DNA from: Cyanobacteria bacterium P01_A01_bin.123
GTDB taxonomy: Bacteria; Cyanobacteriota; Cyanobacteriia; Phormidesmidales; Phormidesmidaceae
Length of the DNA: 64,000 nucleotides
NCBI GenBank assembly: GCA_039815185.1
Contig: JBCBZT010000034.1
Location: 1 to 64,000, forward strand
Direction: 5' to 3'
Below the pieces are notes generated by a model. The model did no database searches and was not told the origin of the DNA. It was given only the letters and a program-made list of their open reading frames with translations. The position numbers and the translations under genes were made by a program. Numbering within the stretch: the first letter of the stretch is position 1; each line of letters starts with the position of its first letter. This document shows positions 16,120 through 37,500 of the stretch, piece after piece.

Positions 16120-16146
16120 TTCTTTTCACCAAGTTTTTGGGGTTGG

Positions 16147-16236
16147 AGATCCCAGGGTTCTGCAGGGAGAGAGATCACGGGGTTCTTGCAGGAGTCCTCA
16201 AAGCTGTTGCCTGAACTCGATAGAACCCCGGGATCT
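16147..16236. repeat. cyanobacterial REP/SDR-like inverted repeat element
   Basis: agatcccagggttct / agatcacggggttct ... agaaccccgggatct. Confidence 0.45.
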
Positions 16237-16270
16237 AATCTGTCACACTGGGATCTGGCGTATATGCCTA

Positions 16271-16750
16271 TTACGCATCCCAAGCCCCCGCATTCTCAAT
16301 GCCGTAGGTTTGGCGCAGGCTATCTAGAGGCTGATCCATCACCGTATCGGGCTCGATATAAGCATTAATCTGGTCACGAACGGTGAAGCCTTGTCGAACT
16401 CCTGAAAAATAAAGCCGCAGGATTTCAAGGGGGTGATATTTCACCGACTCGGTGCCGACAGCTTGGCCCCAGCAAGATCGCCACGTGACTTCGATCGCTA
16501 CCCCAATACTTTGCAGGTAGTAAGTCCAAGGACGTCGCCAGGTCAGCGCAGTTAACAAGAAGCCCACAAGTTGCATCTCATCATCTAAGTCAGTGCTGTA
16601 TCCAGTGACAACGTGCATGATGTCGTGTCGCTGTAAGTCTTGCCAGGGGATCGTGAGCCAGCCTAATTGCAGGTCGCGATCGCGAGTAAAGGTAGGATTC
16701 GCACAATAATACTGTTCTAGACCCTGACGCAGGGTTTGTTGTGTTGCCAT
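16271..16750 (-). CDS. Coq4-like metal-binding protein
   Basis: HDIMH-x11-E motif (HDIMHVVTGYSTDLDDE); GGAG RBS. Confidence 0.6.
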   Translation of the reverse strand: MATQQTLRQGLEQYYCANPTFTRDRDLQLGWLTIPWQDLQRHDIMHVVTGYSTDLDDEMQLVGFLLTALTWRRPWTYYLQSIGVAIEVTWRSCWGQAVGTESVKYHPLEILRLYFSGVRQGFTVRDQINAYIEPDTVMDQPLDSLRQTYGIENAGAWDA

Positions 16751-16770
16751 ATTGGATTCTCCTTATCAGC

Positions 16771-16820
16771 ACCCCTCCGCCTCCGGCACCTCCCCTTATG
16801 AAGGGGAGGATGGGTGGGGT
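16771..16820. repeat. short GC-rich cyanobacterial palindromic repeat
   Basis: cctcccctt-atg-aaggggagg hairpin. Confidence 0.5.
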
Positions 16821-16938
16821 CTGCTGTGTTGTTTAACTTCAGGCAGTGGGTTGTATAACAGCATGCTGATGGGCTGATTGGATAGCGTGTTGGTTATCGT
16901 GATCGCCTGGCCAACAACCGTAAAACAGAAACCACTGC

Positions 16939-17835
16939 CTAGGGAGTACTGGCCACAAGCGTTTCATTTTTAGTACTTGCCCCTGCGCCTAGTTCCAGAT
17001 AACGGTGCAGGTACTCAGAGATCACACCGTGCAATAGCAAATTATGGGCAGCAGCAAAGGCACTGTTGGGGGCCAACGGATGGCGGTTGGTAATAATGTG
17101 ATTCCAAGTCGAATCACCCGTTACTTTGGTGAAATAGAGCCCAAAGTTTTCATCAAACTGGAGTGAAATCACGGCCCGCTCAAACTCGTCGCTGGTGACG
17201 CAGAGGGAATAGCAAATCTTGAATAACTCCAGTGCGGATTCCATATCAAGTATTCGCAGCCAGCCCCGTTTGGTGACGTCCACATCGATCTCGACGGGTT
17301 GCACACTGCTGAAATCTAGCCCGCGCTGGTGGACTTCAGCTAGCCAGTTGGGGTTTTGCTGCTGGGCTTTGTGATAGTCCAAGACGAAGTTATACAAGAT
17401 CAAGTCGTGCTCTAGGAATGCGTTTGCGGCTAAATCTTCGACAGTGCGGGGATAGAGTTCAGAGCGGGCGATAGTTGGGTCAGGGCCATTGTCAATTAAG
17501 AAATTGACGATATTAGACCCAATCGCTAAGTGGCGCACAATCAGATAACAAGCTTCTGGGGTGGTAAACGTGTTGAGAAACCAAACTGCCAGGTTGTGCA
17601 TGATCCAGTAGGAGCGAAACTGGAAAGGCAGTAACCGCTTTAGGGTCATGATCAAGGCCAGTCCCAGGTTGGCAATGATTTTGATCGGAATCAGCAGGTA
17701 ATTACGCGACCAGCTTTGCAAGTCTTTGACCATGTAGGCTTTCGCCGTTGGGTCAACGGGGATGGCCTGGTCGAAATAGATCGCATCCCAAACGTTGGGA
17801 TCTCTGCGGTCGTGGGGTTTAGGAATGTAGGTCAT
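16939..17835 (-). CDS. conserved hypothetical protein coupled to the DarB-like gene
   Basis: 4-nt ATGA overlap with upstream ketosynthase; His/Glu-rich helices (IVRH, FLEHD, HG..SE.LH). Confidence 0.75.
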   Translation of the reverse strand: MTYIPKPHDRRDPNVWDAIYFDQAIPVDPTAKAYMVKDLQSWSRNYLLIPIKIIANLGLALIMTLKRLLPFQFRSYWIMHNLAVWFLNTFTTPEACYLIVRHLAIGSNIVNFLIDNGPDPTIARSELYPRTVEDLAANAFLEHDLILYNFVLDYHKAQQQNPNWLAEVHQRGLDFSSVQPVEIDVDVTKRGWLRILDMESALELFKICYSLCVTSDEFERAVISLQFDENFGLYFTKVTGDSTWNHIITNRHPLAPNSAFAAAHNLLLHGVISEYLHRYLELGAGASTKNETLVASTP

Positions 17836-19757
17836 ACGTCAATTTCCTCCAGTTGCAGCCGATAGAGCCGGGCAGTGGTTTTTGCGGTTTTGACAATGCG
17901 ATCGCCAATTTCTGGCGTCATCCAGTCAGCTTCTAGAAACGCTTGCAGCTTGGCGATGTGGGATTCATCATTGTCAGCGTGATAGGCCAAAAATGAGACC
18001 TGCTGCTTGCTCAAACCCAGCGTTTTTTGAATCAGGTCTGCCCACTCGCCCGCCAGGCGATTACCTAAACCTTCAATAATGAACATGCTGCCCAGTAAAT
18101 CAATCGGATTTTCACGAGAAGCCTGTTGAAAGATGTAGGCCGAGAGCGCTTCGGAGCCCGTATTTTTTTCTGCCCCTACAATCTCTTCAAGCTCTCCCCC
18201 CACGGATACGTAATTGCGCTCCAACATTTGGAAATCTCGGTGTTCGTCTTGAGCATGGCCGATTAAAAGCGATCGCAGCTCAAAATTAGTCGCATGGGAA
18301 GCTGCCCGCGTAATCCAGCGTGCCCCTTCCACGACCTGGGGACGCAAGTTGCGTAGCAGGGCTTTGTAGTCCTGCAAGGTAAAGGTGCCCCGATGTAATC
18401 GCTGCACGATGGGGACGGAGCGCAGTTCACGATCAAATTCCAGCCAGACGAGCATGAGTTGGCGGAGGAGATCACTGCTGACACTCGATTCGGGGGAGGG
18501 GGAGAGATGGAGAGATGGAGAGAGGGGGGTGGCCGCAGGGACGCGATTAATCGCGTCCTGACTGGGAGGGGTTTCTGCTGTGCTGTCTACAACCGTCAGC
18601 TTCATGTAGGCAGTGGTGAAGCGTCCGCTTTCGGGGACGAAGCAGAAGATGGTTTGGCCGGGTTGCAGTTTGCCAGAGTTAAACAGTTCTTCCAACATTA
18701 AGTAGATCGAGGCACAGCCCGTATTGCCTCGGGTGTAGAGGTTGGTAAACCACTTTTCTTCGGGAATCATGCAGCCAGCTTTTTCAAGTAGGTCAACGAT
18801 TTGACTGCGGAAGAAGTGGGAGGAGTAATGGCACAAGAGCCAGTCAATTTCATCGGGGCGGACGCGACCCGCTTCGATCAGTCGCAACCAGCCTTCGACG
18901 CCGAGTTGCACAACGGTATCCAAAAGACGAATATTTTGTCGTAGATTGATTGCGCCGTCTTCAGCCGCTTCCGCTTGGGAGGGGTAATCCATCCAGCTAT
19001 TGAGCTGTTCGGAAGAGTCAGTCCCGGCATACATGCAGACGGGATAGGCGTTGGCATGGGAGATGAGTTCGATCCACTCGATTTTAAGGCTGAGACCGTT
19101 GGCGGCAGGGCGATCGCTGACCAAACAAGCCCCCGCCCCATCAGACAACATCCACCGCAGAAATTCGGTGTCGAAGGGCAGATTTTCACCAGACTGTCTG
19201 GCAGTTTCTGACTCAAAGCGGGTGTGTTTAAACAGACGAGAAGCGAGTTCAGAGGCCACTGCGATCGCCTGTCGTTTTTTCCCCAGTTGAATTTGTGAGG
19301 TCGCATAGCTCAGGGCAGCCACCCCTGCACAGCAAACCCCTTGATGAGAAGTCGCTTCGAGGGGAGAAAGTTCGGGTAGTTCGCCGTGCACCATGCTGGC
19401 AAACCCAGGAACGAGTAAATCTGGCCAGGTGGTGCCGCAGGTCAGCAGGTCAATGGCGTGGGGGTTGATTCCAGCTTGTTGCAGCGTATCGCGGACTGCT
19501 GCTGCTGCCATTTGGCTGTTGCTCACAGTGGTTTGCTGTTGCTGATCAAGGGCGTAGTGGCGTTGTTGAATGCCGTTACTTTTGAGAATGCGGGCTTTAA
19601 CGCGCGAGGGGCGATTGTTAACCTTGCCGAGATAATCTTCCATCTCGTCATTGGCAATGGGCTCACCGGGTAGAAACTTGCCCACATGGGTGATGAAGGC
19701 ATCGCGGGGGCGATCTAGGGTGTGGGTAGATGGGTGAAGGGGAAGAGACTGCATCAC
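17832..19757 (-). CDS. StlD/DarB-type beta-ketoacyl synthase III fused to a heme-oxygenase-like (iron-redox) domain
   Basis: Cys-His-Asn triad (GVCCAG, CHYSS, GNTG), FLRWMLSDGAGA, VPESGRF; C-terminal DEHRD, IIEG, HADNDESH. Confidence 0.85.
   Translation of the reverse strand: MMQSLPLHPSTHTLDRPRDAFITHVGKFLPGEPIANDEMEDYLGKVNNRPSRVKARILKSNGIQQRHYALDQQQQTTVSNSQMAAAAVRDTLQQAGINPHAIDLLTCGTTWPDLLVPGFASMVHGELPELSPLEATSHQGVCCAGVAALSYATSQIQLGKKRQAIAVASELASRLFKHTRFESETARQSGENLPFDTEFLRWMLSDGAGACLVSDRPAANGLSLKIEWIELISHANAYPVCMYAGTDSSEQLNSWMDYPSQAEAAEDGAINLRQNIRLLDTVVQLGVEGWLRLIEAGRVRPDEIDWLLCHYSSHFFRSQIVDLLEKAGCMIPEEKWFTNLYTRGNTGCASIYLMLEELFNSGKLQPGQTIFCFVPESGRFTTAYMKLTVVDSTAETPPSQDAINRVPAATPLSPSLHLSPSPESSVSSDLLRQLMLVWLEFDRELRSVPIVQRLHRGTFTLQDYKALLRNLRPQVVEGARWITRAASHATNFELRSLLIGHAQDEHRDFQMLERNYVSVGGELEEIVGAEKNTGSEALSAYIFQQASRENPIDLLGSMFIIEGLGNRLAGEWADLIQKTLGLSKQQVSFLAYHADNDESHIAKLQAFLEADWMTPEIGDRIVKTAKTTARLYRLQLEEIDV
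18539..18558. repeat. perfect 20-bp palindrome within the coding linker
   Basis: ggacgcgattaatcgcgtcc, next to ggagagat tandem repeats. Confidence 0.75.
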
Positions 19758-22217: not shown

Positions 22218-24395
22218 TCAACTCCAAAATTCGTCCAGATCGACTTCTGAGATCTCTTTTTGAACTTCCTGGAAGTAGCTGCTGGCGGTCAACGTCGCAA
22301 CTTCTTCTTCACGTTTATTTTGGTCGATCTCGATCTTCAATTCTTTTAATTGCTGTCTTAGTTTATCTTCTCGATTTTTGCGCTCTGTGATGTCTTGCAC
22401 AATCCCTTCGTAATACAACACGTTACCGTTGTTGTCTCTAACCACACGCGCATCAATCTGAGTCCAGATAATGGTGCCATTTTCACAGTAAGAACGGTAC
22501 TGAAAATTCTTGACCGTATCTTGTTTATCTATCAATTCTTTGAACTCAGTCCGTTTCTCTGAATCTACATAAAGCTGCTCACCAATATTGGTAATGCGCT
22601 TGATCATCTCAGCCGGTGAGCGATAACCATAGATTTTTGATAATGCCGGATTAACATTGATAAAGCGTCCTGCTGGGCTAGATTGAAAAATTCCCTCCAG
22701 GGCATTTTCAAAGATGCTTCGATAGTTTTCTTCAGCGATACGCAGGGCTTCTTCGGCTTGTTTGCGATCGCTAATATCGCGCACCATAATCAAGACTTCA
22801 TCTTCCCCTAAAACTAGAATGCGAATTTCTTCATCTTGAGGTTTACCATTCAGCAAAATTCGATGCTCATAAACCTGAAGCTGACCTGTTTTCAAGGCGT
22901 TCTGAATATAGCGCATCCGCTTCTCTGCCAGCTCAGGAGGTAATGATTCCTGAACGGTGTTGCCTGGGCTAAACTGCTGCATTCCATATACACCCCGCAG
23001 GCGATCGCTGCCGATGATATCTAAGTAGGTACCATCCCCTTTGGCCCGAATCATCAAATCAGGAATGGTATTGACAATGGCGCGATTGGTTGCTTCGCTC
23101 TGACGCAGCGCTTCGAAGGATTGCTTCAGCTGACTGGTCATTTTATTAAAAGACCCCGCCAGCGAGCCAATTTCAGTAATGAAGCTGGGGGGAACCTGCT
23201 GATCGAGCTGGCCTTGGGCCAGCTTGTCTGATGCTTTAGACACGCGCAGAATCGGGCGGGTAATCCATCGGGCAGCGAGCACACTAATCACCAGTGCTAG
23301 CAGTAATGCCACCAAACATAGAAAAATCGTGTTGCGGGTGTTGGTATTGATCTGCCCCATAAAATCGGCTTCAGGCACCACAACGACAATCAACCAATCC
23401 AATCCAAACCCGTCCTGAAAGGGCACAACTTCTAAAAACTGGCGTTTTCCCTTGATCTGAACTTCGAGTCGTTGAGCTTGGTTAATCTGCTCAAATCCAT
23501 TGAAGCGATTGACTAAGTAGTTCGCCGTGTCCCGCACCAGCTGATCTTGGCTATTGGTCGCGAGTAATGGCTGAACTGTATCATTACCCTCCACCATGAG
23601 GGGTTCATCCGTCGAGTTGGAGATCAAATTTCCTTGGCGATCAATCACAAACGCTTGCCCCGTGTTGCCAATTTCTAGACTTTGCAAGAAATCCCGAAAT
23701 TCTTTTGGTAAGACGACATCGGTGGCACAGACCCCGATCAAATTTCGCCCCGACCGATTGTACACGGGCAAACTAGCTGTAATATTTGGCAAGCCTGTGG
23801 TGAAAGCAATATAAATATCGGTCCAGCTGGGTTGTTCAGCTAATGTGGCCGCCGTAAACCAGGGGCGCTGACGAGAGTCGTAGGGTTTGTCAGTTTGACG
23901 TAAGAAATGGGTGCGTTCACCCCTGACATCCAAGCTGTAGAACCGACGCAAATAATTGGTCGATTGATTGCTATATGACAGTTGTAGAGAACCATCTTCA
24001 GGCGATCGCAACACGCCAAAAAATTCGCCTTTTTGAGCACTGCCACAATAGACTAAGGCAACCGTCGGCGCGATCTTCATCTGTTGGTAAAGCTGACTCT
24101 CGCCGAAGGTGCCTTTCTGCAAATCGATCTGGCCAAGGGCAAGCGCCCCGGCATTGAGCCGATTGATTTCGTGGGGTGTTTCAAAATATCCCCTCAACTC
24201 TCGTTCAATCCGAGCAGTCACCTCTTGCCGCAGTTGCGTTGCCAGGTCGCTAACGGCCTTCTGCCCATTGCGAAATGACAGATAGCCGACTAAACCGACT
24301 GCACCGACAATCTGCCCGACGAACATCACAATCAGCATGACTCTCAAAGGCAGACTGACAGATTTAGATGCTTTCAAATTAGGAGATGATGACAT
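22218..24395 (-). CDS. Cache-HAMP-PAS-PAS sensor with no enzymatic output domain
   Basis: TM, periplasmic YDSRQRPWF, TM, HAMP (ITRPI...EIGSLAGSFNKM), two PAS, C-terminal LKIEIDQNKREEEV...YFQEV tail. Confidence 0.88.
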   Translation of the reverse strand: MSSSPNLKASKSVSLPLRVMLIVMFVGQIVGAVGLVGYLSFRNGQKAVSDLATQLRQEVTARIERELRGYFETPHEINRLNAGALALGQIDLQKGTFGESQLYQQMKIAPTVALVYCGSAQKGEFFGVLRSPEDGSLQLSYSNQSTNYLRRFYSLDVRGERTHFLRQTDKPYDSRQRPWFTAATLAEQPSWTDIYIAFTTGLPNITASLPVYNRSGRNLIGVCATDVVLPKEFRDFLQSLEIGNTGQAFVIDRQGNLISNSTDEPLMVEGNDTVQPLLATNSQDQLVRDTANYLVNRFNGFEQINQAQRLEVQIKGKRQFLEVVPFQDGFGLDWLIVVVVPEADFMGQINTNTRNTIFLCLVALLLALVISVLAARWITRPILRVSKASDKLAQGQLDQQVPPSFITEIGSLAGSFNKMTSQLKQSFEALRQSEATNRAIVNTIPDLMIRAKGDGTYLDIIGSDRLRGVYGMQQFSPGNTVQESLPPELAEKRMRYIQNALKTGQLQVYEHRILLNGKPQDEEIRILVLGEDEVLIMVRDISDRKQAEEALRIAEENYRSIFENALEGIFQSSPAGRFINVNPALSKIYGYRSPAEMIKRITNIGEQLYVDSEKRTEFKELIDKQDTVKNFQYRSYCENGTIIWTQIDARVVRDNNGNVLYYEGIVQDITERKNREDKLRQQLKELKIEIDQNKREEEVATLTASSYFQEVQKEISEVDLDEFWS

Positions 24396-24408
24396 GGGTT
24401 CTTTTGGC

Positions 24409-24564
24409 TTACGAGCTCCAAAATTCATCCAGATCTACTTCTGACACCTCTTTTTGCACCTGCTGGAAGTAGCTGCTTTCTGTCAGTGCTGACACTAGCG
24501 TGATCCGCAGTCGCAGCCTTCGGGAACGTTGGGAGTTGGGGGAGTTACTAGTCATCACGTCCAT
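24409..24564 (-). CDS. 51-aa mini-protein: in-frame internal deletion of a paralogue of the adjacent sensor
   Basis: GGAGGAG RBS, MDVMTSNSPNSQRSRRLRLRITLVSALTESSYFQQVQKEVSEVDLDEFWSS*; tail matches the sensor C-terminus. Confidence 0.7.
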   Translation of the reverse strand: MDVMTSNSPNSQRSRRLRLRITLVSALTESSYFQQVQKEVSEVDLDEFWSS

Positions 24565-24597
24565 CTCCTCCAGCGATCTATTGATTTACACATGATA

Positions 24598-25992
24598 TTA
24601 CCGAGCTGCATGAACTTCCTGCGCCGCATGAATAGCTGATTCGATTGCTCCCTGAATCCAGCGAGTTTCAAATTTGCTGCAATGGTCTCCAGCAAAATAA
24701 ACCCGTCCTTCAGGAGCCACGATATCCTTGAAGCTGGACATCGTGCCCGGTTCAAGCAAGGCTCCCACCCCACCCGCATAGGGATCATTACCCCAGTGGT
24801 GATAGACAGCCACCTCGAAGGTGCGATCGATTTGCGGATGAATCTCCCGTAAGTTTTCGATTGCCTGTCGGATTAGGTAATCACGCGGCAAACTCGCAAA
24901 GGACTGGGCATCTCGTCCCCAGGTATAGCTTGCCAGCAAGGCTCCCCTGCCGGTCTCCTGTCCATGTTGGGGATAGTAGATATTGCGAATGGCCAAATCG
25001 GTAACCGATCCGCCACCGTGAATCCCATCATCGTTTTCCCAAAAACGCGAACTGCACTGAATGAAAATTTTAGAAGACGAGTCGTAGTTAAGTTGGCGGA
25101 TCGCCCGACGCTTACTGGGGGCGAAGGGGGGAGTCACTTCGATATGCCGCATCAGGCTAAAGGGGATGGTGACGATTAGGTAATCGGCTTTTTCTTGAAA
25201 CCGACCTGCCAAGGTGTCATAGGTAACGGTGACTTGATTGGCTGCATTGTCGATCGCCTCCAGCGAGGCCCCAAATCGAATCTCTTTCCCTAAGATTGGT
25301 AGAAACGCCTTCGGTAGGGCGTCAGAGCCATCCACCAGATACACCATATCGGAAAAGGTGCTGGAGTATTCGTGATGGAGATAGCTCACGAAAGAAGAAT
25401 TCATCCGAGACTCCACATTGCCCAAAATGCCCAGCATTTCGAGCGCCCCCTCTGACCATCCGGCATGATGCAGAAACCCTCGCAGGGAAAAGTGATCGTA
25501 TTCTGCAATAATGTCATCCCAGACTTTATCGCCTTGTTCCAGAACGCGATTGTAAATGGGTTTGAAGGTGGCTTTGAGCAGATCTTCGGGATGCTTGCCC
25601 TGCTCGTGGGGATACACATCAAAGATAAACTTGGTCGGGTTAAATTCCTTGCGCCGTACCCGCTTGCCTTGTAGATAAATGTAAGCGTTTGGGTTACTGA
25701 GGATGAACGGTTCCGTTTTCAGGCGGAAGCGTTTGATGTAGGCCATGGTTAAGTCATGACTCTGGGGAATCCGCATGGCTCCAATTTCCGCTCTCAACCC
25801 CGGAGCCAATCCCTCACGCATTGTGTAAACGCGCCCCCCAACCCGATGTTGAGCTTCCAGAATGGTAATCGTGTGACCGGCTCGCTTCAGTAAATCGCCA
25901 GCGACCAGTCCCGCCATTCCTGCGCCCACAATGATGATCTTTTTAGGACGGCTAGCGTTGGTATCTAGCCCGTTCTGAATCATTGATTGCAT
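24598..25992 (-). CDS. flavin monoamine oxidase / L-amino-acid oxidase family
   Basis: GAGMAG, EA..RVGGRV.T, GAMRIP, FAGDH, WIQGAIES. Confidence 0.9.
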   Translation of the reverse strand: MQSMIQNGLDTNASRPKKIIIVGAGMAGLVAGDLLKRAGHTITILEAQHRVGGRVYTMREGLAPGLRAEIGAMRIPQSHDLTMAYIKRFRLKTEPFILSNPNAYIYLQGKRVRRKEFNPTKFIFDVYPHEQGKHPEDLLKATFKPIYNRVLEQGDKVWDDIIAEYDHFSLRGFLHHAGWSEGALEMLGILGNVESRMNSSFVSYLHHEYSSTFSDMVYLVDGSDALPKAFLPILGKEIRFGASLEAIDNAANQVTVTYDTLAGRFQEKADYLIVTIPFSLMRHIEVTPPFAPSKRRAIRQLNYDSSSKIFIQCSSRFWENDDGIHGGGSVTDLAIRNIYYPQHGQETGRGALLASYTWGRDAQSFASLPRDYLIRQAIENLREIHPQIDRTFEVAVYHHWGNDPYAGGVGALLEPGTMSSFKDIVAPEGRVYFAGDHCSKFETRWIQGAIESAIHAAQEVHAAR

Positions 25993-26027
25993 TTTGGGTT
26001 GACTCCTAATCGTTTTGGATTTAAGGG

Positions 26028-27059
26028 TTACCAGTCATCAATCCCATCTCCTCCAGCAATCCATTCGTCTAAGTTGCGATCGCCCGTGGCCACATTAAAC
26101 AGATGTAAGCCAAAATCCTTAGACAGGTCCTCACAGACCTTGATGCCCCGCACACTATTGCCTTTAATGTCCAGCGGTGGCGAAAATGTGCCGATGCCCA
26201 ATTTGCCGGGAACCACGGCTAAAATGCCGCCCCCCACGCCACTCTTGGCAGGCATACCAACCCGGTAGGCCCACTCCCCTGAGGCGTCATACATGCCGCA
26301 AGTCAGCATCACACTGACGACATCTTGCACATAGCGTTCGTCGATCGCCCGTTCTTGAGTCACCGGATTGATACCACCATTGGCCAAAGTTGCCGATAGC
26401 ATCGCCAGATCACGGGCATTGACCATGACTGAACATTGCTGAAAGTAGAGATCTAAGGTTTCATCAATTTTGTCGCCCACCATGCCAAAGTTGAGCATCA
26501 AATAGGCCATTGCCCGGTTACGATACCCCGTTGACTTTTCAGACAAAAAGACGGGCACATTGATATCGTGCTCTCGTCCGGTGAAGCGCTTAAACATTTC
26601 CAGCACCCGTTTAAGGCGCTCGGTGCCGTTTTTGCCCTTGATTAAATCAGCCGTTGCGATCGCCCCCGCATTTACCATCGGATTGTAAGGACGGTTAGTG
26701 ACCTCATCCAACACAATCGCGTTGAAGGCTTCGCCCGTGGGCTCCACGCTGACCTTGCTATTAACATACTCACGCCCGTGATCTTCCAGGGCTAAGCCAA
26801 ACACAAATGCTTTTGAAATGGACTGAATCGTAAAGAGTTGATCACACTCCCCCACCTCAAACACCTGACCATCGGCAGTCACAACGCAGATCCCGAACCA
26901 TTCTGGCTTAGCGAGGGCGAGTTCAGGAATGTAGTCGGCAACGGTGCCGTCATCTAACGATCGATATTTTTCGTGTAGATCGTTCAAATAATTTCGAAAG
27001 GGCGAAGTAACCGCAGTAATCGAGTTGGCAAGGGACTGTAAATCTCCAAAATTGGACAT
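26028..27059 (-). CDS. glsA: glutaminase A (single domain)
   Basis: [15 protein letters not shown] (SxxK), [22 protein letters not shown]. Confidence 0.95.
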
Positions 27060-27064
27060 CCTTT

Positions 27065-27823
27065 CTAACCCTCCGTAATCTGCTGGGCCACTTTACGAAA
27101 CTCTTGACTCACTTCGTGTTCAGGATATTTCACACAAAATACGCCTTCACTGGCCAGCTGCACCACATCTTCCGACAGCGGAAACACCCCTGCGACCTTC
27201 TCATGGTAGGTTTCCTCGACTTTCTGCTGGAGGGCATCCAGATTCAGTTTGCTGTGGGCTTTGTTGATCGTCAGCAGCATTTTGCGAACTTTCAGTTGCC
27301 GGGCCACATCCACCGTGACCGCTGTGCCCTGGTAATCCTGTTTGTCAGGACGCAAAATTAGGATCAACACATGTGAAATGGCAATTGACAAAAAGGTTTC
27401 TTTCGAAAGGCCTGGATGGGTATCAATGAACAAATAGTCCAACTTGAGTGCCTTAACGAGGCTACGAAACCCATCGTTCATCAGCTTGACATCGTAGCCA
27501 TCCTTGAGAATACGGGCGATGTCATCTGCCTTAACACTGGAAGGCACGAGATAAAGTTTGCCCTCGCCTTCGACGCCAACATTAGCACCGATGTCGTAGG
27601 CCGTATCTTCAATTGAACTTTCACCCCACAAGTAATTATTAAGGGTTTTGTGAGTGTGCTCTGGTTCCAGACCAAACAGATTGTGAATACCGGGTGAGGG
27701 CACATCTGTATCGACAACCCCGACACGATACCCCTGCAGTGCAACTGTGGTGGCTAAGTTTGCAGTAAAGTTAGATTTACCCGTACCGCCTCGGTAAGAG
27801 TGGATCGAAACAACTTTTGGCAT
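27065..27823 (-). CDS. MinD/ParA family ATPase
   Basis: SYRGGTGKS deviant Walker A, VDTD..SPG, IDTHPG. Confidence 0.88.
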
Positions 27824-28022
27824 TTCTGGGTTAATGGATGGGTAATGTGGAGAACTCTTTCAAGAAAATACCAGATAAAACCTGCTCTTAAAGAAAATGC
27901 CAAGGCGGATCTTTAAATGTAAGCACTCATTATCCATTTTTCTAGGGCAGGGATGTGACTCACAGCCTCCCAAAAACTTGCTGACAAGCCCTCTATGACT
28001 AGATCTGCAATAACTCTAAATC

Positions 28023-30059
28023 TCATATCTGAGTAGAGCGTAGTGCCGCTCCCGAATAAGCTTCTGCTTGCTTGAGAGCCTTAACAATAGCATCGTGGCG
28101 ATGACGCATAGCATCATCGAGTGGGGTAAAGCCCCAACGGTCTTGGACGTTGGGGTTGACCTGATTGGCCAGTAAAAACTCAATCACGTTGAGCTGTCCT
28201 TCTGCGGCGGCAAGGTGGATGGCGGTGCGACCATCATAGTCTGCTGCATCCATGGAAATTCCGCGGGCAATGTAGGGCAACATCGCATTCAGATTGCCCT
28301 GACTAGCAGCCCAGATTAGGGCTGTAACATCAGTGGTGACCGAACTGGGCAGTTTGATGTCGGCTTGGGGATAAGAATCTTGCCCTCTTTTTGCCCCGGC
28401 CTCTTGCAGAATGGCGGCAACAGCCTTGTGTCCCTGTTGTTCGGCATCATTCAGCGGTGTGCAACCCCAGCGGTCGGTGACATTTGCATTTGCACCGTGC
28501 TCTAACAGAAATTGCACCACATTTTTATGACCACCGGCAGCGGCCAAGTGTAGAGGCGTTCGATTGTCATAGTCGCCGGCATTCATATCGGCTCCACGAA
28601 TTTGGTACTGCGTTATGGCCGTCAGGTCGCCTCGGCTGGCCACTTCAATTAAGCTGGTAATTTCTTCTGATTCTCGCTGAATTGGGCTGACACGGGGGTT
28701 CTTTTTTTCTGACTGAAAATCGAGATTATCGTAGTTGTGGACGCTAAATTTTTGAACCAGCTGCTTACAGAATTCAACCCCGCGCACGCTGTTGCCTTGA
28801 ACATCAAGATTAGGGGACCAAATACACAAGCCCAACACGTTAGGAATGACAACCATGACCGCTCCGGACACGCCGGATTTGGCCGGTAACCCCACCATAA
28901 AGGCCCATTCACCACTGTAGTCATACATGCCGCAGGAGTACATCAAAGACAGACAGTGTTGCACCGTATTGGTTTTGAAAATCTTTTCGCCTGTAATCGG
29001 ACAGGTGCCCCCATTGGCCATGGTGGCAGCCACCACAGACATTTGGTCAGCATTCAATTCAATCGAACAGGACTGAAAATAGAACTCTAGGGTTTCTTCA
29101 AGCTCGGCCCAGGCAGGGAATGCTTTCGTTTCCATCATGTAGTGGCTGAGGGCACGGTTGCGATGGGCCGTTTCTCGCTCAGATAAATACACGGCGTTGT
29201 TAAAAGTAATCCGATCATTGCCGGTGAGACGGCTCCAGTGATTGAGCACATAATCAAACCGATCGGCATGGGGTAGATCATGGCGAATCAGAGAACAGCA
29301 CATAATAGCCCCTGCGTTAATCATGGGATTATGGGGTAATCCTTTACTGTTCAATGTGAGTTCATTGAACCCTAAACCAGAAGGTTCTCGCCCGACGTGC
29401 TGATGAACCACTTCGGCGCCCAGTTCTTCCAAGGCGAGACAGTAGGCAATGGTTTTGCTGGTGCTTTGCACCGTAAAGTTTTCAAGGGTGTTGCCACGGG
29501 AGTAGCGCTGCCCGTCAATGGTACAGATGGCCACGGCAAAGTTTCGCTCATCGACCCTGGCGAGTTGAGGAATGTAGTTGGCGAGGGCACCCCCATCATG
29601 AACACTGACCGCTTCGTAAATCGTGTCGATGTCCTGGCAAAAATCTTGAAAATCGGGAATGATTAGCTGGGCTTTGAGTACCCGACGGATCAGATGGATA
29701 TTGGGACGAATGATTTTTTGAAAGTCATCAAAGTCAATTTCAGAGTCATGGCGGGGTGAAAGCAGACCTAATTCCTGCAGACTCTCAGAAAAGCGTAAAT
29801 CGGAGAGCTTGAGTCCAGCGCGCACAAAAGTACTCAAAAACTCTTCGCGCGTGATTTTACCGTTACCATCTAGATCGGCAGCTTGGAATAGGCGAAGATC
29901 CTGTTCATCGACGGCTTTAGCTGCTGTCATAGCCCGGCCTAAAGTTGGGGGTTGAGTCGGCTTGGGTAGGGTCGATTTAGCATCCTTTTGAGGCCGAGCC
30001 TCAGGCATAGGCTTGTCGATGGCCTTGGTTTTGGTTTTGGTTTTAGTTTTTTGATCCAT
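28023..30059 (-). CDS. multidomain glutaminase: EF-hand + glutaminase + ankyrin repeats
   Basis: DLDGNGKITREE EF loop; ANYIPQL, QSTSK, NPMINAGAI, PAKSGVSG; two ankyrin blocks (DYDNRTPLHLAA, DYDGRTAIHLAA); start uncertain (30059-30158). Confidence 0.92.
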   Translation of the reverse strand: MDQKTKTKTKTKAIDKPMPEARPQKDAKSTLPKPTQPPTLGRAMTAAKAVDEQDLRLFQAADLDGNGKITREEFLSTFVRAGLKLSDLRFSESLQELGLLSPRHDSEIDFDDFQKIIRPNIHLIRRVLKAQLIIPDFQDFCQDIDTIYEAVSVHDGGALANYIPQLARVDERNFAVAICTIDGQRYSRGNTLENFTVQSTSKTIAYCLALEELGAEVVHQHVGREPSGLGFNELTLNSKGLPHNPMINAGAIMCCSLIRHDLPHADRFDYVLNHWSRLTGNDRITFNNAVYLSERETAHRNRALSHYMMETKAFPAWAELEETLEFYFQSCSIELNADQMSVVAATMANGGTCPITGEKIFKTNTVQHCLSLMYSCGMYDYSGEWAFMVGLPAKSGVSGAVMVVIPNVLGLCIWSPNLDVQGNSVRGVEFCKQLVQKFSVHNYDNLDFQSEKKNPRVSPIQRESEEITSLIEVASRGDLTAITQYQIRGADMNAGDYDNRTPLHLAAAGGHKNVVQFLLEHGANANVTDRWGCTPLNDAEQQGHKAVAAILQEAGAKRGQDSYPQADIKLPSSVTTDVTALIWAASQGNLNAMLPYIARGISMDAADYDGRTAIHLAAAEGQLNVIEFLLANQVNPNVQDRWGFTPLDDAMRHRHDAIVKALKQAEAYSGAALRSTQI

Positions 30060-30204
30060 GGTATTTAGCATCAGGTGACGACAGGGTGGCATTGACAGAA
30101 AGCTGCCTGATGGGGAATCGCTGGCAGCGCTAGCGTTAAAGCGATGAATAGTGGGCATCGCTGACGACTTCAGGCCGATCAGAGAGACTATTTGCTGTGG
30201 GGAT

Positions 30205-30410
30205 AAGGCTACACATAAATTGGAAATAGGACTCGATCCCAGCAGACTTAGAAGCTCTCACGCTGGTGAGTTGGTCAAAGATAGGCTGGGTCAGAATGTT
30301 TCGAGCCCGCTGCCAGACCAGGACGCCCATCACTGCAGCAGAGCCCAACTGACCCCTAACAGCACCAACATCACTTTTGATTTGATCCTGAGCTGCCCCA
30401 GTCCTAACAT
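30205..30410 (-). pseudogene. frameshifted 5' remnant of a membrane sensor (adenylate-cyclase/HAMP type)
   Basis: GGAG RBS, MLGLGQLRIKSKVMLVLLGVS / LGSAAVMGVLVWQRARNILTQPIFDQLTSVRASK...IESYF, then lost. Confidence 0.55.
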
Positions 30411-30427
30411 TGCACATCACTCCAATA

Positions 30428-30460
30428 GAAGAAGAAGAAAAGGGGGCGCAGAATGCCCCC
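30428..30460 (-). terminator. intrinsic terminator after amt
   Basis: gggggc-attctgc-gccccc stem followed by ttttcttctt on the minus strand. Confidence 0.55.
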
Positions 30461-30542
30461 ACAAGGAGTCTTGGCAAAAGCCAAGAAACGTTCAGAACCA
30501 AACCTTTGTGGCGATCGCCTTGGGCTAACTTTGGCGATCGCG

Positions 30543-32027
30543 CTACAATTTCGTCTCGATTTCAACGCTGGGTGCTTCGTCTGTCATTGAGAAGCCTGCG
30601 TAGGCAATCTGCCCATGCTCGTGGATATCGAGCCCCTCAATTTCCTCATAGCCATGGACACGGATGCCAATTGTTGCCTTCAATGCCATCCAGCAGATTA
30701 AGCCTGTGATGATCGTAAAGACACCATAAGCAAGCACCCCCAACAACTGCACGTTAAACTGCTGAACACCGGCATTCTCGCCAAAGATACCGACGGCCAA
30801 GGTAGCCCAGATACCGTTGCAGAGATGGACTGAAACAGCCCCTACCGGATCATCAATTTGTAGGGAATCAAAGAAATCAATCGCGAACACCACCAGTACA
30901 CCTGAAACGCAGCCAATGATGATGGCTGATACAAACGACACCTGGTTGCAACTAGCAGTGATACCCACCAACCCTGCCAGAATGCCATTAATCACCATGC
31001 CTAAGTCTGGTTTTTTATTCTTGAACCAAGAGACAAAAGTAGCAATAGTCCCTCCAGCAGCACCCGATAGGTTGGTTGTGATGGCAATATAAGCAATATT
31101 TTCATTAGCCGCCAACTCAGATCCAGGATTAAACCCAAACCAACCAATCCAGAGAATCAAACAGCCTAGCGTGGCTAAACTGAGGTTATGGCCCGGAATT
31201 GGCTTCACGAGTTTGTCCTCATACTTGCCGTAGCGGGCACCCAGGACAATTGCCCCGACTAGGGCCGACCATCCTCCAACACTGTGCACCACCGTCGAGC
31301 CCGCAAAGTCGGCAAAACCTAAATTAGCTAACCAGCCGCCGCCCCAAGTCCATTTGCCCGAGATGCAGTAAAAGGCGATATTAACCACACTAAAGATCAA
31401 AAAGGCGTCAAATCGAATCCGCTCAGCCACTGCTCCCGATACGATGGTGGCGGATGTCGCCGCAAAAGCCGCCTGAAACAGGAAGAAAATAGTAATTGGC
31501 AAACCTGCGGGGAAGGGATCCAAACCATAGGTGGCCGAGTCGCCCGACATAAAGAAACCCGTCAGGCCAATAAAGCTATTGCCCTGACCAAACATCAACC
31601 CAAAACCAATCGCCCAGTATGTGAGCAGGGCCAACCCAAATACAATTAGATTTTTAGAGAGGATATTAACCGCGTTTTTCTGGCGGCACATCCCCACCTC
31701 TAACATGCCGAAGCCGGCATTCATAAAGACCACTAGGGTAGACGCCACCAAAATCCAAACCACGTTGAGATATCCCTGCTGCAGCGCCACCTGCTCTGCC
31801 AGGGACTCTAGGGTGACATCATCCTGGGCAAACGTCACCGTAGATAAGCCGATGACAATCCAGGCTGAGACACAGAAAAACACCATGGTGCGGTGTCGAG
31901 TTACCCATCTCAATAACTGAGCTAAGGCATCGCGATAACGGGTATTAACTACCAAGGGAGGACAACCATCTGTCTTCCCTTTGATTTGCTCGACATGACT
32001 AGACATTGTCACTCCTAATTCAAACAT
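30543..32027 (-). CDS. amt: ammonium transporter
   Basis: [46 protein letters not shown]; start uncertain. Confidence 0.96.
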
Positions 32028-32568
32028 TGAGTTAGCCCCTGAAGAGGTGAAACCAGTAAACTCTGAACCTCACAATCAGCTAAACAGCTGAAAATCCAAA
32101 GTCATAAAGGCCACAAAAGATCAAGGCTATAGCCTCAGAAAAATGCAACTAAATCTTTCAAATGAGTCGTCCAAACCCCATCAGATACTTTGTAGATACC
32201 CCATCACCTTTACTTAAAGAAGGTCATACCTGAAATCCTCTCACTTATTGCTCCAGAGACAGAGATTTCAGTAGAGTTAGCAAGTATTAAAACTCAGAAG
32301 TTCAACAAAAGTAAAGTCTGATTATTCGGTCAATTACCTTTAAACAAACTGAGTCAAGTATAAAGAGAAATAAATAATTCGGAATTGACTAAACTACTAC
32401 AGTAAAAATGCGAACCAAAAAATGACCCATATTAGGACAAGAAACGTCTGACCTAGTTCACTCACAGGGCTCAGCTAAAGAAATTCAATCTAAGCACCTT
32501 GATTGAACATCTGCATGAGCTGCCTTTTACATCTGCCTCTATATTCAATCAAGACAATTGGGAAAAGC

Positions 32569-32593
32569 AAAGTCGGGAAAGTCGGAAAGCTGG
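32569..32593 (-). promoter_or_regulatory. 9-bp tandem repeat upstream of amt
   Basis: aaagtcggg-aaagtcgga-aagctgg (= TTTCCGAC on the minus strand). Confidence 0.5.
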
Positions 32594-32784
32594 TTTCATG
32601 ACAATCTAATAAGGGTATAAAATCTTCATTTACTTTAAATATTCAATCCTTAATTTTTTCGCTCCCAAACAATCTCAAAAAGCCAGCATCTAAGATTTCA
32701 CTGAAAACTCCGCACTAATTTCTGACTCTCAGTAGCTATATCTATCTTCAGCGAAATCCTGAGTCATTTGTTTTTTGATTCATA

Positions 32785-34143
32785 TCAGAAACTTTGAAAG
32801 CTCAGCTGTTGTTTAAAGTATGAACGATATACTTCACAACTCGATACAGCTTTGCAGCCTTGTATCTTGATTAGTCCAAGACTTTCTAATCGATACATTG
32901 TAACCGCATCCAGTTCTACACCTCCCTCGGTAGAAACGATTTGTTTAAGTGCAGTGGCTAGGTCGGGATCGCGTTTCAGCAGTGCCAAATAATTTCGTAG
33001 ATGATCACCATAAATGCCAGATGGTGTGGAAGCCATTTTGATTAGATCTGCTGACTCTAAATTTTGAGTCACGAGATGATAGAAAAACACATTCACTAAA
33101 TAAGGGTGCCCACCCACTAAATCTACCAATTGTTGAGCACACGAACTATCAACCTGGTCTAATCCATATCGAGCCGCTAATTCATAGACTTGAAGCGTTG
33201 TAAATCCAGGCAATTTGATCACTTGACCAATATTAAATGGAGATTGATGAATCTTTAAGGGAACATAAATTTCAGTCGCATGGGCAATGACCAGGCGGAG
33301 ATTGCGCCAACTCAGACTCCACTTCGCTTTTTCATGCCAGGAACGGAGCAATGGGAAAAAATCTTGAGCGATCTTGGGATGTTCAATCAGGTCTTCAGCA
33401 CCGGAAATAATCAGCACAATGGGGGTTCGAGTTCGCTCAAGAATGTGTGCTTGGTAGTAGAGTTCGCTACTGATTTTGTACCCCATTGATGAATCCCAAT
33501 ATTCTTCGAGCTTAGGGGGGATATTCAGTTCTTGACTCACCCGCAAACAAAACCATTGCAGAAACGTATCTATACTTGTGAATACAGCTTTATCAACGGT
33601 TTGCAAATCTAGATGGGCAGTTTGATAGCCCTGTTGTTCGGCAAATTGAATGAGCCGAAATACCAGGGAAGTTTTTCCCATTTTTTGAGGGGCTTTGATG
33701 CGCAGAAAGCCGCCAGGACGTTGAATTTCTGAATAAGCTAAGTGTTCGTTGGGCGGGCGATCGATATACAGCGGCGAATAGGGCGACAACGGGCCAGACG
33801 GATACTGCAAATGGCTAGGGGGGGACACTGCGGTAACCGTTACAGGCACCTGTGGTTCGAGCGTTAGACTTGGGCTAGTCATCAGAGGGGATGACTGTAA
33901 ACGCTCTCGGAGGACAAAGAGCAAACTCTTTTTGGTAACACGTTGTCCCAGGGCTTGGGAAATCTCTCGCCATAGCTTATAGCCCGTGTCCTTGAGGTGG
34001 GCATCCCCATAACCTGAGTGTTGCGCCATTTGGTCATAGGTCTGCTTGTTCCAACTTTGCCCGAGCACAATCCGCTCCGCAGGGCTAAGCTGCCGCTTGA
34101 GAAACCGTTCTTCAATTGTCAGCAGAACTTGATCGGGATCCAT
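32785..34143 (-). CDS. N-terminal HTH + AAA-like (AAA_35) protein
   Basis: LSPAERIVL...TYDQMA...LKDTGYKLW HTH; LYIDRPP, APQKMGKT, QSPFNIG, GGHPYL. Confidence 0.85.
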   Translation of the reverse strand: MDPDQVLLTIEERFLKRQLSPAERIVLGQSWNKQTYDQMAQHSGYGDAHLKDTGYKLWREISQALGQRVTKKSLLFVLRERLQSSPLMTSPSLTLEPQVPVTVTAVSPPSHLQYPSGPLSPYSPLYIDRPPNEHLAYSEIQRPGGFLRIKAPQKMGKTSLVFRLIQFAEQQGYQTAHLDLQTVDKAVFTSIDTFLQWFCLRVSQELNIPPKLEEYWDSSMGYKISSELYYQAHILERTRTPIVLIISGAEDLIEHPKIAQDFFPLLRSWHEKAKWSLSWRNLRLVIAHATEIYVPLKIHQSPFNIGQVIKLPGFTTLQVYELAARYGLDQVDSSCAQQLVDLVGGHPYLVNVFFYHLVTQNLESADLIKMASTPSGIYGDHLRNYLALLKRDPDLATALKQIVSTEGGVELDAVTMYRLESLGLIKIQGCKAVSSCEVYRSYFKQQLSFQSF

Positions 34144-34369
34144 ACGTTCATATGCTGGTTTTAATAACTCAAGTTTTCAGAAGAAATTCTTCTATATCTG
34201 CGGCTAAAAATAGTATCAAAAATCACACAATGTTATCTAGTAGGTGGCTGTAATGCCTTGAAGTACAACCCATCAGCTTTCCTGATTAGCCCAAGACCAG
34301 GAGAACTCCGGGAAATCACTTATTACTTTCTCACACAATTTTAGAAGGAGGCATCACACAAGTTTTCAC

Positions 34370-34405
34370 TTTCTGCCTTTCTCCGTCTTTTCCGTCTTTT
34401 CCGAC
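34370..34405 (+). promoter_or_regulatory. 9-bp tandem repeat upstream of the HTH-AAA gene
   Basis: ttctccgtc-ttttccgtc-ttttccgac. Confidence 0.5.
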
Positions 34406-34543
34406 CTATCTTTCAGTAGATGAGTTCATGTTTTGAAACGAATTTCCCTGAAAATCAATGCAAACGATTAAAACACATCTAATATTTAGGCACAGGGGGC
34501 TTCACCCTTCTTTACTTATCCACAAAAGATCTTTTGGCTACCG

Positions 34544-37500
34544 TCAATCTTCTGATAAGCCATCACAGAGGGTGCGATCGCCCTCTGCTACCTCGACATT
34601 CGTGCGTAAATAATCTGCCACCCAATCGCAAGCATAGTTCAGCTCATTTAAAGACAGGATCTCCTCTAAATTCCAAAGGGTGAGGGTGCCATCTTCAGTG
34701 ACCGTTATCAGCTCGCCTCTGTTGCTAAATTTCACACTCCTGAAGCCAGCCCCATGTCCATAGAGGGTTTTGAGTTTATCTCCATCCAGAGACCACAAAA
34801 TAACGGTGTTATCACCACTGGCAGTGGCCAGCATTTGTCCATCAGCACTAAAATCCACCCCAAAAATACCCGTGGTGTGTCCTTCAAAGGTGCTGACCAA
34901 GGTGCCATCCCATCGCCATAATTTGGCTGTTCGATCGGCACTGGCCGAGGCAAAAAACTGACCGTCCGGACTTACCGATAGCCCAAAAATATCTGAATCG
35001 TGGGCTTCAATCCTATGCCGACGGGTACCATCAGCATCCCAAATCTGAACAGTCCCATCCGATCCTGATGAGACAAAGCTTTGATCGTCGGGGCTAAACG
35101 CCACACGATAGATCCGCCCATTATGCCCATCAAGGGTATGTATGAGTTCTCCCTCGACCGTCCAAATTCGGATGGTTCCATCTTCTGCCCCCGCCACCAC
35201 GCGTTGATTGTCAGCGCTAAAGGCAGCATCCCAAATTTGGAGTTGATGCCCCTCTAAATCCCGCAGAAAACGCCCCTCCTGGGTCCAAAGTTTAAGGGTG
35301 CCGTTGTGTCCAGTCGTCGCCATCATTTGACCATCTGGGCTGAAGTCAAATCCAAACAGGATCTCGTCCGTTTGTAGTGTGGCAACGATGTTCCGCTCCT
35401 TGTCCCAGATATGAACCATCGTGCTATCGCCAGAAATAATCCGGTCACCTTGAGGACTGATGGCCAGATCCCAAATCTCATCATTTAGAAAGATGGTTTT
35501 GAGCAGTGATGTTTCCCACTGCCTGAGCTGCGCTGTATTGCGAGTGCCGGTCATCACGATGGATTGAACATCGGTGGGAGAAAAGCTGAGTTCGCGGATA
35601 TCTCCTGGGGTTTGAAGGATGCGCCAAGGGTTTCCATCTTTTCCCCAAATCCAAAGGGTTTTATCTAGACCTGCGGAGGCGATCGCAGTTCCATCAGCCG
35701 CAAATGCCACGTCTTCAACCCGCTTTGTGTGCCCCGTCAGGGTTGTGATGGGGGCCCCATCAAGCTGCCAGAGCTGTACCACTTGACCGTCGCCGCCAGT
35801 GGCCACTAAGTTTCCTGTAGTGCTAAAGGCCACACTCCAAAGACTGCCACCTTCGAGGGCTCCCGGTAATGTCCCTAGGAGTTGACCATCGGGAGTCCAG
35901 ACTTTGGCAGTATTATCCAGACTCGCCGAAGCGATGGTTTGATCCACTGGACTCACGGCGACTTGCCAAACCATGCTTTGATGCCCCGACAACGTTGTGA
36001 GCAAAGTCCCGTCTAGATTCCATACCTTAGCCTGCTGATCGGCGCCACCTGAGACTAAAAATTCTCCCATGGGGCTAAAGGCTAAAGTCCAGGCAGCTCC
36101 TTCATGGGCCTGGATCGTTTGCACCAATGTTTTTGATTCAAGATTCCAAATTTGTAAGCTACCGTCCAAATTGGTTGCCGCTAGCAAGGGACGTTGGGGA
36201 TGAAACGCGACACCAAAGGTGGTGGCATTACCGGCAAAGGTGTGGAGGAGTTGGCCGTTCTTAGCCCAGAGCTTGACGGTTTGATCGCCACTAGCGGTCG
36301 CAATTAATTCTCCATCCGGGCTGTAGGCGACCCCCAAAACGTGTCCTTCATGGCCTGACAACCGATTCCGTTCACTCATCCAATAGACAATCTGGTTGAG
36401 GGCACGATCTGCCGCCGCTTCTAACTGCGGATCAGGCTGCTCAAGATCCTGGAGCCGGCGCTTCGCTTTGATGGCATCAACTAGGGCCTCTAATTCTTGG
36501 TGGGAGGCAAACCGCCCTTCTGCCGATGAGATCAGGGCTCGAATTTCATTCAAGCGAGAGGTCTGTTCACTGGCGATCGCTCGACGATATTGGCGAAAAG
36601 CCACTAGACCCAATAAGGACACGATCACTAACGCACCTGAGATCATTCCCAGAAGAATTCGCTGTAGACGAGTGGTGCGTCTAGCCGCTTGGGCCTTCTC
36701 TAAATCCAGCGACTTCTGAATTTCAGCCTGTTCTTGCTCTTGACCCAGAGACAAAAATCGATAGTCTAAGTCGCTCAGGCTTTTGCCCCGAGCCCAGGCT
36801 TGGGCGTCCCGTAATGCCTGTCCCCGCAGCAATCGCGATTCATCCACTTGCTGTGAGCCTACCCAGGCATTAAACATTTCCGAGTAAGGACGTAGGGCGC
36901 CCAACTGGCGCTGCACCCAATCTAGATCAAATACGTTTTCATAAATGCGGTTTTTAACCCGGAGATAGCCCCCTTGCTGCACCATCAGACCGCTAAGCAG
37001 TAGCTCTATTTGGTCCCGACTATCGTCGGTAGCGATGGTTTGCCCCTCTAGCCAGCGTTGATAGAGGCCCAATAAACGTCCCGTACGGCGGTCATCGTAG
37101 AGCAACCGATCGCGAATCGTGCGCAAATGCTCGGGCTCATCTTGGGATTCCCAGTGATCAATGATCTGCGATCGCACCACACTTTCCACCCAGAATCGCT
37201 CCATCCCAGGGGGTACACTCAGCGGCTCATTGATCGCGGTTTGGCTAGAGACAACCAATAACTGGCAGACCTTTTGAATGAGAAACGGTTGGCCCCCCGT
37301 CCAATTCAACACTTCTTGCAAAATGGCGGCAGTGTTTGGGGTTTGAATCTGCAAGCCATGGGCTAAAGGAGCTGCTGCTTCGAGGCTAACCCCACTCAGC
37401 ACAATGGCCCGACCAATATTAAACGGGGTGCGTTGTTTATCGGCAATTAAATCTGTCGGGGTCGCGACCCCAAAGATGGCAAAGGTCAGGCGTTTGTAGT

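Follow-up and report, generated by a model that had tools for sequence, protein, structure and literature searches.

A 64,000-nt stretch of the genome of Cyanobacteria bacterium P01_A01_bin.123 (the window, meaning the whole stretch analysed) carries seven co-oriented open reading frames (ORFs) on its minus strand within positions 22218..32027. From the amt side to the sensor side, they encode an ammonium transporter (Amt), an EF-hand/glutaminase/ankyrin protein (the long glutaminase), a ParA/MinD-like ATPase, a second glutaminase (glsA), a flavin amine oxidase, a 51-residue product (the mini-ORF) and a dCache-HAMP-PAS-PAS sensor. A first-pass annotation had correctly placed seven genes of these families here and had proposed that they form one dedicated ammonium sensing-and-release module. 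The seven ORFs are real, but they form two gene units rather than one, and the conserved core consists of ATPase, glutaminase and sensor, in that order; amt, the long glutaminase and the other neighbours are add-ons to it. The core recurs in many cyanobacteria and is apparently an undescribed three-gene signalling module, in which a conserved C-terminal tail of the sensor may act through the ATPase on the glutaminase.

Conserved core of the locus

We gathered 120 loci around relatives of the ATPase, with one search contributing the best 80 of 302 matches. After removal of repeats of the same ATPase, 114 loci remained: 94 clade A loci (at least 400 bits to the window's ATPase, plus one cut copy) and 20 clade B loci. 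The glutaminase is the next gene after the ATPase in 81 of the 94 clade A loci and in 0/20 clade B loci, and a protein with the type A form of the tail is seen only at clade A loci (64/94 versus 0/20). Downstream sequence of 4 kb is available for 75 clade A loci; 65 of these contain the glutaminase, 60 a type A tail protein and 53 both. In contrast, amt and the long glutaminase lie near the ATPase in 5 and 4, respectively, of the 62 loci having at least 5 kb upstream, and an oxidase orthologue occurs in 3/94 clade A loci, each time directly after glsA. All six intact genes are found together at no other locus examined. One glutaminase of the proposed seven-gene module travels with the ATPase; in the gene-neighbourhood check that had been suggested for it, ATPase, glutaminase and tail recur, and amt, the long glutaminase and oxidases recur together in one lineage while being rare at ATPase loci. 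The core features are as follows.

27869..27875, minus strand: TCTGGTA element lying 52 nt upstream of the ATPase start; it probably belongs to a promoter specific to the core unit
27065..27823, minus strand: MinD-like ATPase, clade A of an unnamed family, with a Walker motif bearing Arg at the signature-Lys place and no C-terminal membrane helix
26028..27059, minus strand: module-specific glutaminase (glsA), TIGR03814 371 bits versus a cut-off of 255.4
22218..24428, minus strand: membrane sensor, TM-dCache_1-TM-HAMP-PAS-PAS-tail (TM, transmembrane segment); the start is probably 24395, the Met at which the ESM Atlas record begins
23718..23882, minus strand: dCache_1 amino-acid-binding motif Y183, R188, W190, Y206, D237 (motif definition from PMC8915833)
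22221..22376, minus strand: C-terminal coiled coil and type A tail (IEID..EV..LT.S.YFQE...LDEFW), the predicted output module of the sensor

The intergenic gaps are 384 nt between amt and the long glutaminase, 199 nt between the latter and the ATPase, 5 nt between ATPase and glsA, 35 nt between glsA and oxidase, and 33 nt between oxidase and mini-ORF. The mini-ORF overlaps the sensor by 20 nt if the first sensor ATG is used and lies 13 nt apart from it with the ATG at 24395.

The motif TCTG[AGC]TA, picked by eye from the same sequences in which it was then counted, is found in 24/55 regions upstream of the ATPase, which are kin and not independent, with 18 copies at -41 to -59; shuffled sequences give a mean of 3.6 and a maximum of 9. 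These upstream regions suggest that the ATPase has its own promoter, separate from the amt block. A scan for sigma-70 promoters gave 8 sites, versus 12.9 in shuffles. A perfect NtcA site is absent before the ATPase of the window, and NtcA sites precede the ATPase in 10/55 loci, which is within the shuffle range (mean 4.6, maximum 13).

Tail, ATPase and linked glutaminase

The sensor had been described as output-less. However, its final ~46 residues, which are conserved up to a fixed terminus, belong to a large tail family, and the idea that the sensor is a truncated kinase or cyclase was rejected on this ground. No Pfam model covers the tail and no solved chain matches it. A tail profile retrieved 2,173 clusters (50% identity) at E<=0.001 among 1.84 billion representatives. 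The tail is nearly always C-terminal among the 150 tail matches listed, and in the 32 proteins scanned it follows dCache, CHASE, CHASE4, GAF, HAMP, PAS, receiver and hybrid-kinase domains. Most tail proteins carry no other output domain. One of them, P0078, is an Amt-PAS-tail fusion, which is likely an ammonium sensor using the same tail output. The tail of the window's sensor is acidic (12 D/E versus 6 K/R). Its feature match in the ESM Atlas (0.81) is a lead only, and its structural neighbours there are HAMP, GAF, REC and cNMP proteins of Chloroflexota, Actinomycetota and others. The same genome also encodes a separate dCache-HAMP protein with a type B tail (G000:C15:50474-51796).

The tail is closely associated with the ATPase family. 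In a survey of 61 genomes, among which kin are not independent, all 35 ATPase-positive genomes have the tail, 4 have the tail only and 22 have neither; 22 of the 26 genomes without the ATPase family are thus also without the tail. In 22 of 30 longer ATPase proteins, the tail lies directly N-terminal of the ATPase domain, and these fusions represent four or more architectures, led by cNMP, kinase/receiver, dCache or PAS domains. A tail protein stands beside the ATPase in 3/5 plasmid regions opened (Deinococcus, Rhizobium, Nostoc punctiforme), and none was found by the ATPase in the other 2/5. We consider it highly probable that tail and ATPase act together. The earlier suggestion of a MinD-type ATPase in place of a kinase or cyclase fits both the co-occurrence and the fusions. 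Complex prediction for an ATPase dimer with tail and ATP and the glutaminase as partner scored 0.02 against a mark of 0.32, with controls not folded, and thus weighs on neither side of the question of binding.

The ATPase is 73-91% identical across cyanobacterial families, and its nearest solved relative is the archaeal MinD 1hyq (E 3e-16). MinD-type ATPases have a deviant Walker A motif with a signature Lys (KGG in 1hyq and 1g3q); at this place all 56 clade A ATPases carry an invariant Arg (R11). The protein falls below the curated cut-offs for MinD (TIGR01969, 83.8 versus 201.75; TIGR01968, 49.6 versus 212.9) and ParA (NF041546, 44.5 versus 180). It ends at the last core helix, without the C-terminal amphipathic membrane helix that is a trait of cell-division MinD (PMC11407121); 54 of the 56 clade A proteins are 249-256 residues long and none exceeds 282. 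ParA partition ATPases bear a positively charged face for DNA binding. By whole-protein composition the present ATPase is net acidic (32 D/E versus 27 K/R), and clade A ATPases have gained the basic residues K124, K141, R180 and K201. The ATPase is a predicted switch that works like ParA/MinD but lies outside those subfamilies. The same genome holds a clade B ATPase adjoining a degenerate ATPase-like gene (G000:C26:26410-28412). On plasmids of Deinococcus, Nostoc and Streptomyces (L153, L156, L157), clade B-type and more distant ATPases have AGE-epimerase, STAS and glgX genes as neighbours, two of these regions also having a SpoIIE phosphatase; the neighbourhood resembles the icfG cluster of Synechocystis.

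The input domain of the sensor points to a ligand class. The defining residues of amino-acid binding are Y121, R126, W128, Y144 and D173 in PctA numbering (PMC8915833), and the Cache domain holds all five (Y183, R188, W190, Y206, D237). The R, W, Y and D of the motif align with PctB, and the non-contact Y129 position is F; the next aromatic residue is structural (PMC11245519). The best Protein Data Bank (PDB) matches of the domain are PctB, PctC and PctA, a ranking that says nothing on specificity. From its complete motif, the sensor is predicted to bind amino acids, which narrows the extracellular ligand sensing proposed earlier to a candidate ligand class.

The catalytic motifs of glutaminases (S-x-x-K, N, E, Y) are intact in glsA, which has in addition a conserved N-terminal helix (residues 6-21, predicted) and an acidic, Trp-ending C-terminal extension. 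The N-terminal extension is conserved nearly as strongly as the core (0.88 versus 0.91). A glutaminase of the linked type (at least 77% identity) is present in 17/18 clade A genomes, the exception being a genome that is 85% complete, versus 0/43 others. A 43-row tree, built from 19 of the 56 linked sequences together with 22 comparison paralogues, a fusion and the long enzyme, unites the linked glutaminases in one group with support of 99/98. Terminal extensions are lacking in 21/21 sister paralogues, and neither ATPase nor tail was found within ~6 kb of any of these 21. The 22nd comparison paralogue (L184) retains the C-terminal extension but not the N-terminal one; its neighbour is a gene for a type A tail, and no ATPase is present there. 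The fusion, P0151, joins such a glutaminase naturally to an ATPase of the family described here; on folding, both of its domains fold and the linker has low confidence (predicted template modelling score, pTM, 0.52; no control), a model that is uninformative about contact between them. A search for longer proteins with the glutaminase was crowded by proteins of 613-733 residues annotated only as glutaminase (best 120 of 4,663) and says nothing about fusions. The linkage persists in Nostocaceae, Xenococcaceae, Leptolyngbyaceae and other groups, with free swapping of the input domains of the sensors. The glutaminase is probably a working partner of the ATPase.

Upstream block and other neighbours

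The remaining features of the locus are the add-on genes and their remnants.

30543..32027, minus strand: ammonium transporter, an accessory amt copy and the first gene of the lineage-restricted block; TIGR00836 411.7 bits versus a cut-off of 343.3; relatives align from 32006
30442..30460, minus strand: terminator-like hairpin after amt, 6 G-C pairs followed by a T run
30196..30410, minus strand: 5' remnant of a cyclase gene, frameshifted and truncated, ~72 codons; tblastn 80% identity in two frames
28023..30059, minus strand: long glutaminase, EF-hand-like + glutaminase + ankyrin; probable start 30059, where relatives begin aligning
24598..25992, minus strand: flavin oxidase, most like L-amino-acid oxidases, a rare accessory gene; PDB matches at E 1e-79
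24409..24564, minus strand: mini-ORF, a collapsed second sensor gene, with a paralogue start joined to the last 27 tail residues

The amt gene of the window is 82-84% identical to amt of five related loci, and a G/C hairpin resembling that of the window follows amt in all five. GTA-N8-TAC, which we take to be the NtcA consensus, has no perfect copy in 32028-32784 upstream of amt. The first-pass annotation had noted this absence and read it as a hint of non-canonical control; the absence stands, but it is weak evidence because another amt copy on the same contig, outside the window, has a perfect site (G000:C119:72973), and the window copy may be merely the accessory one. A perfect site precedes amt in 1/5 relatives. 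Upstream of amt lie two AAA_35 genes, one with WD40 repeats (window 32785-38011, minus strand), and the shorter AAA_35 gene also precedes amt or the long-glutaminase block in most relatives.

The cyclase remnant matches a gene of 731-738 residues at L080, L091, L100 and L122, which belongs to a family of membrane HAMP-adenylate/guanylate cyclases; the usual partner of this cyclase, an MscS-cNMP gene, is deleted in the window. The long glutaminase occurs in 11/150 family genomes, with four of these 11 loci repeating loci already counted around the ATPase. The order amt, cyclase, MscS-cNMP, long glutaminase is intact in 9/11. Downstream of the long glutaminase, the full core is present in 3 of the 11 loci and the ATPase alone or a fragment of it in 2, and no core gene is found in the fetched stretch at the other 6; the oxidase directly follows in 2/11. 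Together with the cyclase/MscS pair that the window has lost, amt and the long glutaminase constitute a separate, lineage-restricted block of related theme, often upstream of the core. The long glutaminase passes the TIGR03814 cut-off (315.7 versus 255.4) with catalytic motifs intact, and was rejected as the novelty of the locus; bacterial glutaminases of the kidney-type build have reportedly been published already.

The best PDB matches of the oxidase are L-amino-acid oxidases, and in the alignment to 9qs1 it carries the FAD motif and the substrate-pocket motifs GAMR and YYP as in solved oxidases, which fits the amino-acid theme of the locus. A homologue occurs in 1/250 class genomes, with 49% identity. 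A second, distant flavin amine oxidase (532 residues) is found repeatedly in this lineage, upstream of either the ATPase or amt (L077:7689-9287 and three other loci).

The mini-ORF had been counted as a gene of the module. At its 5' side it resembles the beginning of a sensor paralogue, and at its 3' side it consists of the tail end, so it is likely debris, a deletion remnant of a second sensor gene; possibly it is a free tail peptide. A designed gene was rejected, since no similar mini-ORF occurs among the tail matches in the 120 loci and since partial duplicates at L075, L077 and L080 have decayed in different ways. These inverted, decayed partial sensor copies lie just upstream of an intact core (L075:8545-9476, L077:9320-9790, L080:9241-9654), and that at L075 also includes the ATPase. 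By this comparison, the core locus appears to duplicate and collapse often.

Other neighbours of the core include an LCIB-type carbonic anhydrase at six clade A loci (L086, L087, L108, L112, L120, L150), mostly directly after glsA, and a DUF6272 + STAS pair at seven (L074, L078 and others); both may point to pH or carbon links. Elsewhere in the window, four co-oriented minus-strand ORFs (14986-19757) resemble, by eye, genes for a sulfotransferase and a FabH/type III synthase fusion with partners.

Proposed chain, alternatives and known systems

We propose that an amino acid would bind the Cache pocket, as predicted from the complete motif, and that the signal would pass through HAMP and PAS, a standard architecture, to the coiled coil and tail. 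The tail would then engage the ATPase dimer and shift its nucleotide state, the partnership itself being shown by their fusion and co-occurrence. The ATPase would in turn recruit or activate the genetically linked glutaminase via the clade-specific terminal extensions of the enzyme. The resulting conversion of glutamine to glutamate and ammonium would most likely serve the use of amino acids from the surroundings, and the oxidase, where present, would add a second deaminating route. We infer ligand binding, tail-ATPase contact, control of the glutaminase with its direction, and purpose from the sequences. The whole chain in this direction, from amino acid through sensor tail and ATPase to glutaminase, is plausible, although we hold it with slightly more doubt than confidence. 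A broader and more tentative possibility is that tail and MinD-like ATPase form a general, undescribed output that switches metabolic enzymes directly, without phosphorylation, second messenger or transcription; here an amino-acid receptor would turn on a dedicated glutaminase, and in other clades the targets would be glycogen-related or other enzymes.

Several observations weigh against this chain. The loci are related, and locus counts are therefore not independent events; gene linkage also gives no direction of control. The glutaminase is dispensable at the locus, since 13/94 clade A loci lack it and 8 of these 13 nevertheless keep a tail protein, and clade B ATPases work without a linked glutaminase. 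The amino-acid motif is present in only 24 of 74 distinct proteins with a type A tail, so the sensor input varies. P0151 is a single record known from its sequence alone, and its ATPase is clade B-like (57% identity). Finally, the tail is C-terminal and acidic, unlike the positively charged, disordered N-terminal peptide used by known ParA/MinD partners (PMC10241942).

The ATPase might instead place or cluster the sensor, via the tail, and the glutaminase as cargo, passing no signal to enzyme activity. Positioning is the known job of the ParA/MinD family, whose orphan members place chemoreceptor clusters and carboxysomes (PMC11407121, PMC10241942), and mammalian glutaminases reportedly form filaments (compare PMC13142944). 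However, no matrix is evident for a net acidic ATPase that has no membrane helix, placing tail proteins that mostly carry no other output would have no purpose, and direct tail-ATPase fusions make little sense for a pair of cargo and motor; we consider positioning unlikely. It seems quite unlikely, too, that the direction is reversed. In that case the glutaminase would be a second input, informing the ATPase of the internal glutamine level, and the actual output would lie elsewhere (e.g. the cyclase/MscS pair or partner-switching proteins). The glutaminase and the type A tail both end in an acidic, Trp-terminated stretch, and the basic residues gained in clade A look as if both acidic ends dock on similar pockets. 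An MscS-cNMP gene is moreover near 8/13 glutaminase-less loci versus 10/81 glutaminase-bearing ones, an enrichment that nevertheless fits alternative outputs equally well. The fully kept catalytic motifs of the glutaminase, and the lack of any other gene that recurs consistently enough to serve as output, speak against the reversal.

That all genes from amt to the sensor form one co-transcribed, co-regulated ammonium sensing-and-release system, as first annotated, is very unlikely. The genes share a strand and an ammonium theme, the amt block and the core are adjacent and intact in 3/11 long-glutaminase relatives and partly so in 2 more, L091 has amt without the long glutaminase, and P0078 fuses Amt to the tail. 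Against this stand the rarity of amt, long glutaminase and oxidase at ATPase loci, the absence of a second locus, among those examined, with all six intact genes, the hairpin after amt with a separate upstream element for the ATPase, the two decayed genes inside the block, and the six long-glutaminase loci with no ATPase in the fetched stretch. Scarcely probable is the view that a single insertion placed the glutaminase between ATPase and sensor, where it has since hitch-hiked with no working link. A single event would account for the adjacency, given that the linked glutaminases belong to one clade, and other genes (oxidase, carbonic anhydrase) are also tolerated in the slot behind glsA. Yet the pair is kept across several families despite the free swapping of sensor inputs, the linked type is absent from all 43 genomes without a clade A ATPase, and the clade-specific extensions are conserved.

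Sensors without a recognised output are usually dismissed as truncated. In the present case, an unnamed output module is common to a large family of them and is tied to a single ATPase family. The locus offers a predicted ligand class, an ATPase that is soluble and, in the glutaminase, a candidate target that is simple to assay. If the proposed chain holds true, the few known means by which bacteria relay signals gain one more, an orphan ParA/MinD family acquires a role in signalling, and a way emerges in which cyanobacteria may regulate the breakdown of glutamine outside NtcA control. No paper was found on the tail, the ATPase family or the glutaminase link in a literature mostly judged by title and start of abstract, where supplements (e.g. 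Dataset S1 of PMC8915833) may include such sensors.

Several parts of the locus resemble known systems. The long glutaminase has the same EF-hand-like, catalytic and ankyrin build as animal kidney-type GLS (PDB 5uqe, 8gwr; E 1e-144), but is bacterial, has further ankyrin repeats and is accessory to the core. Like the bacterial glutaminases A, such as E. coli YbaS, which serves glutamine-dependent acid resistance (PMC3641589), and Synechocystis Slr2079 (a study of which is cited in PMC13312541), glsA has an intact domain above the TIGR03814 cut-off and would release ammonium. It differs from them in its separate clade, its N- and C-terminal extensions and its tie to a sensor and an ATPase; no glutamine/glutamate antiporter, of the kind with which YbaS is paired in acid resistance (GadC), was found among the 10 proteins in and around the block that the scan covered. 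The sensor resembles the dCache_1AA receptors PctA, PctB and PctC (PMC8915833) in having dCache_1 with the Y-R-W-Y-D motif at matching spacing, whereas no chemoreceptor, kinase, cyclase or phosphatase domain follows and the output is the unnamed tail. With the ParA/MinD systems (MinD-MinE, ParA-ParB, McdA-McdB, ParC-CheW; PMC11407121, PMC10241942), the core shares a fold family and the pairing of a dedicated ATPase with a short partner peptide. Partner proteins in such systems bind the ATP dimer and stimulate hydrolysis. Here, however, the ATPase has Arg in place of the signature Lys, lacks the membrane helix and fails the MinD and ParA cut-offs. Its partner peptide is an acidic, C-terminal stretch carried by sensors and in many cases joined directly to the ATPase, and a metabolic enzyme is linked.

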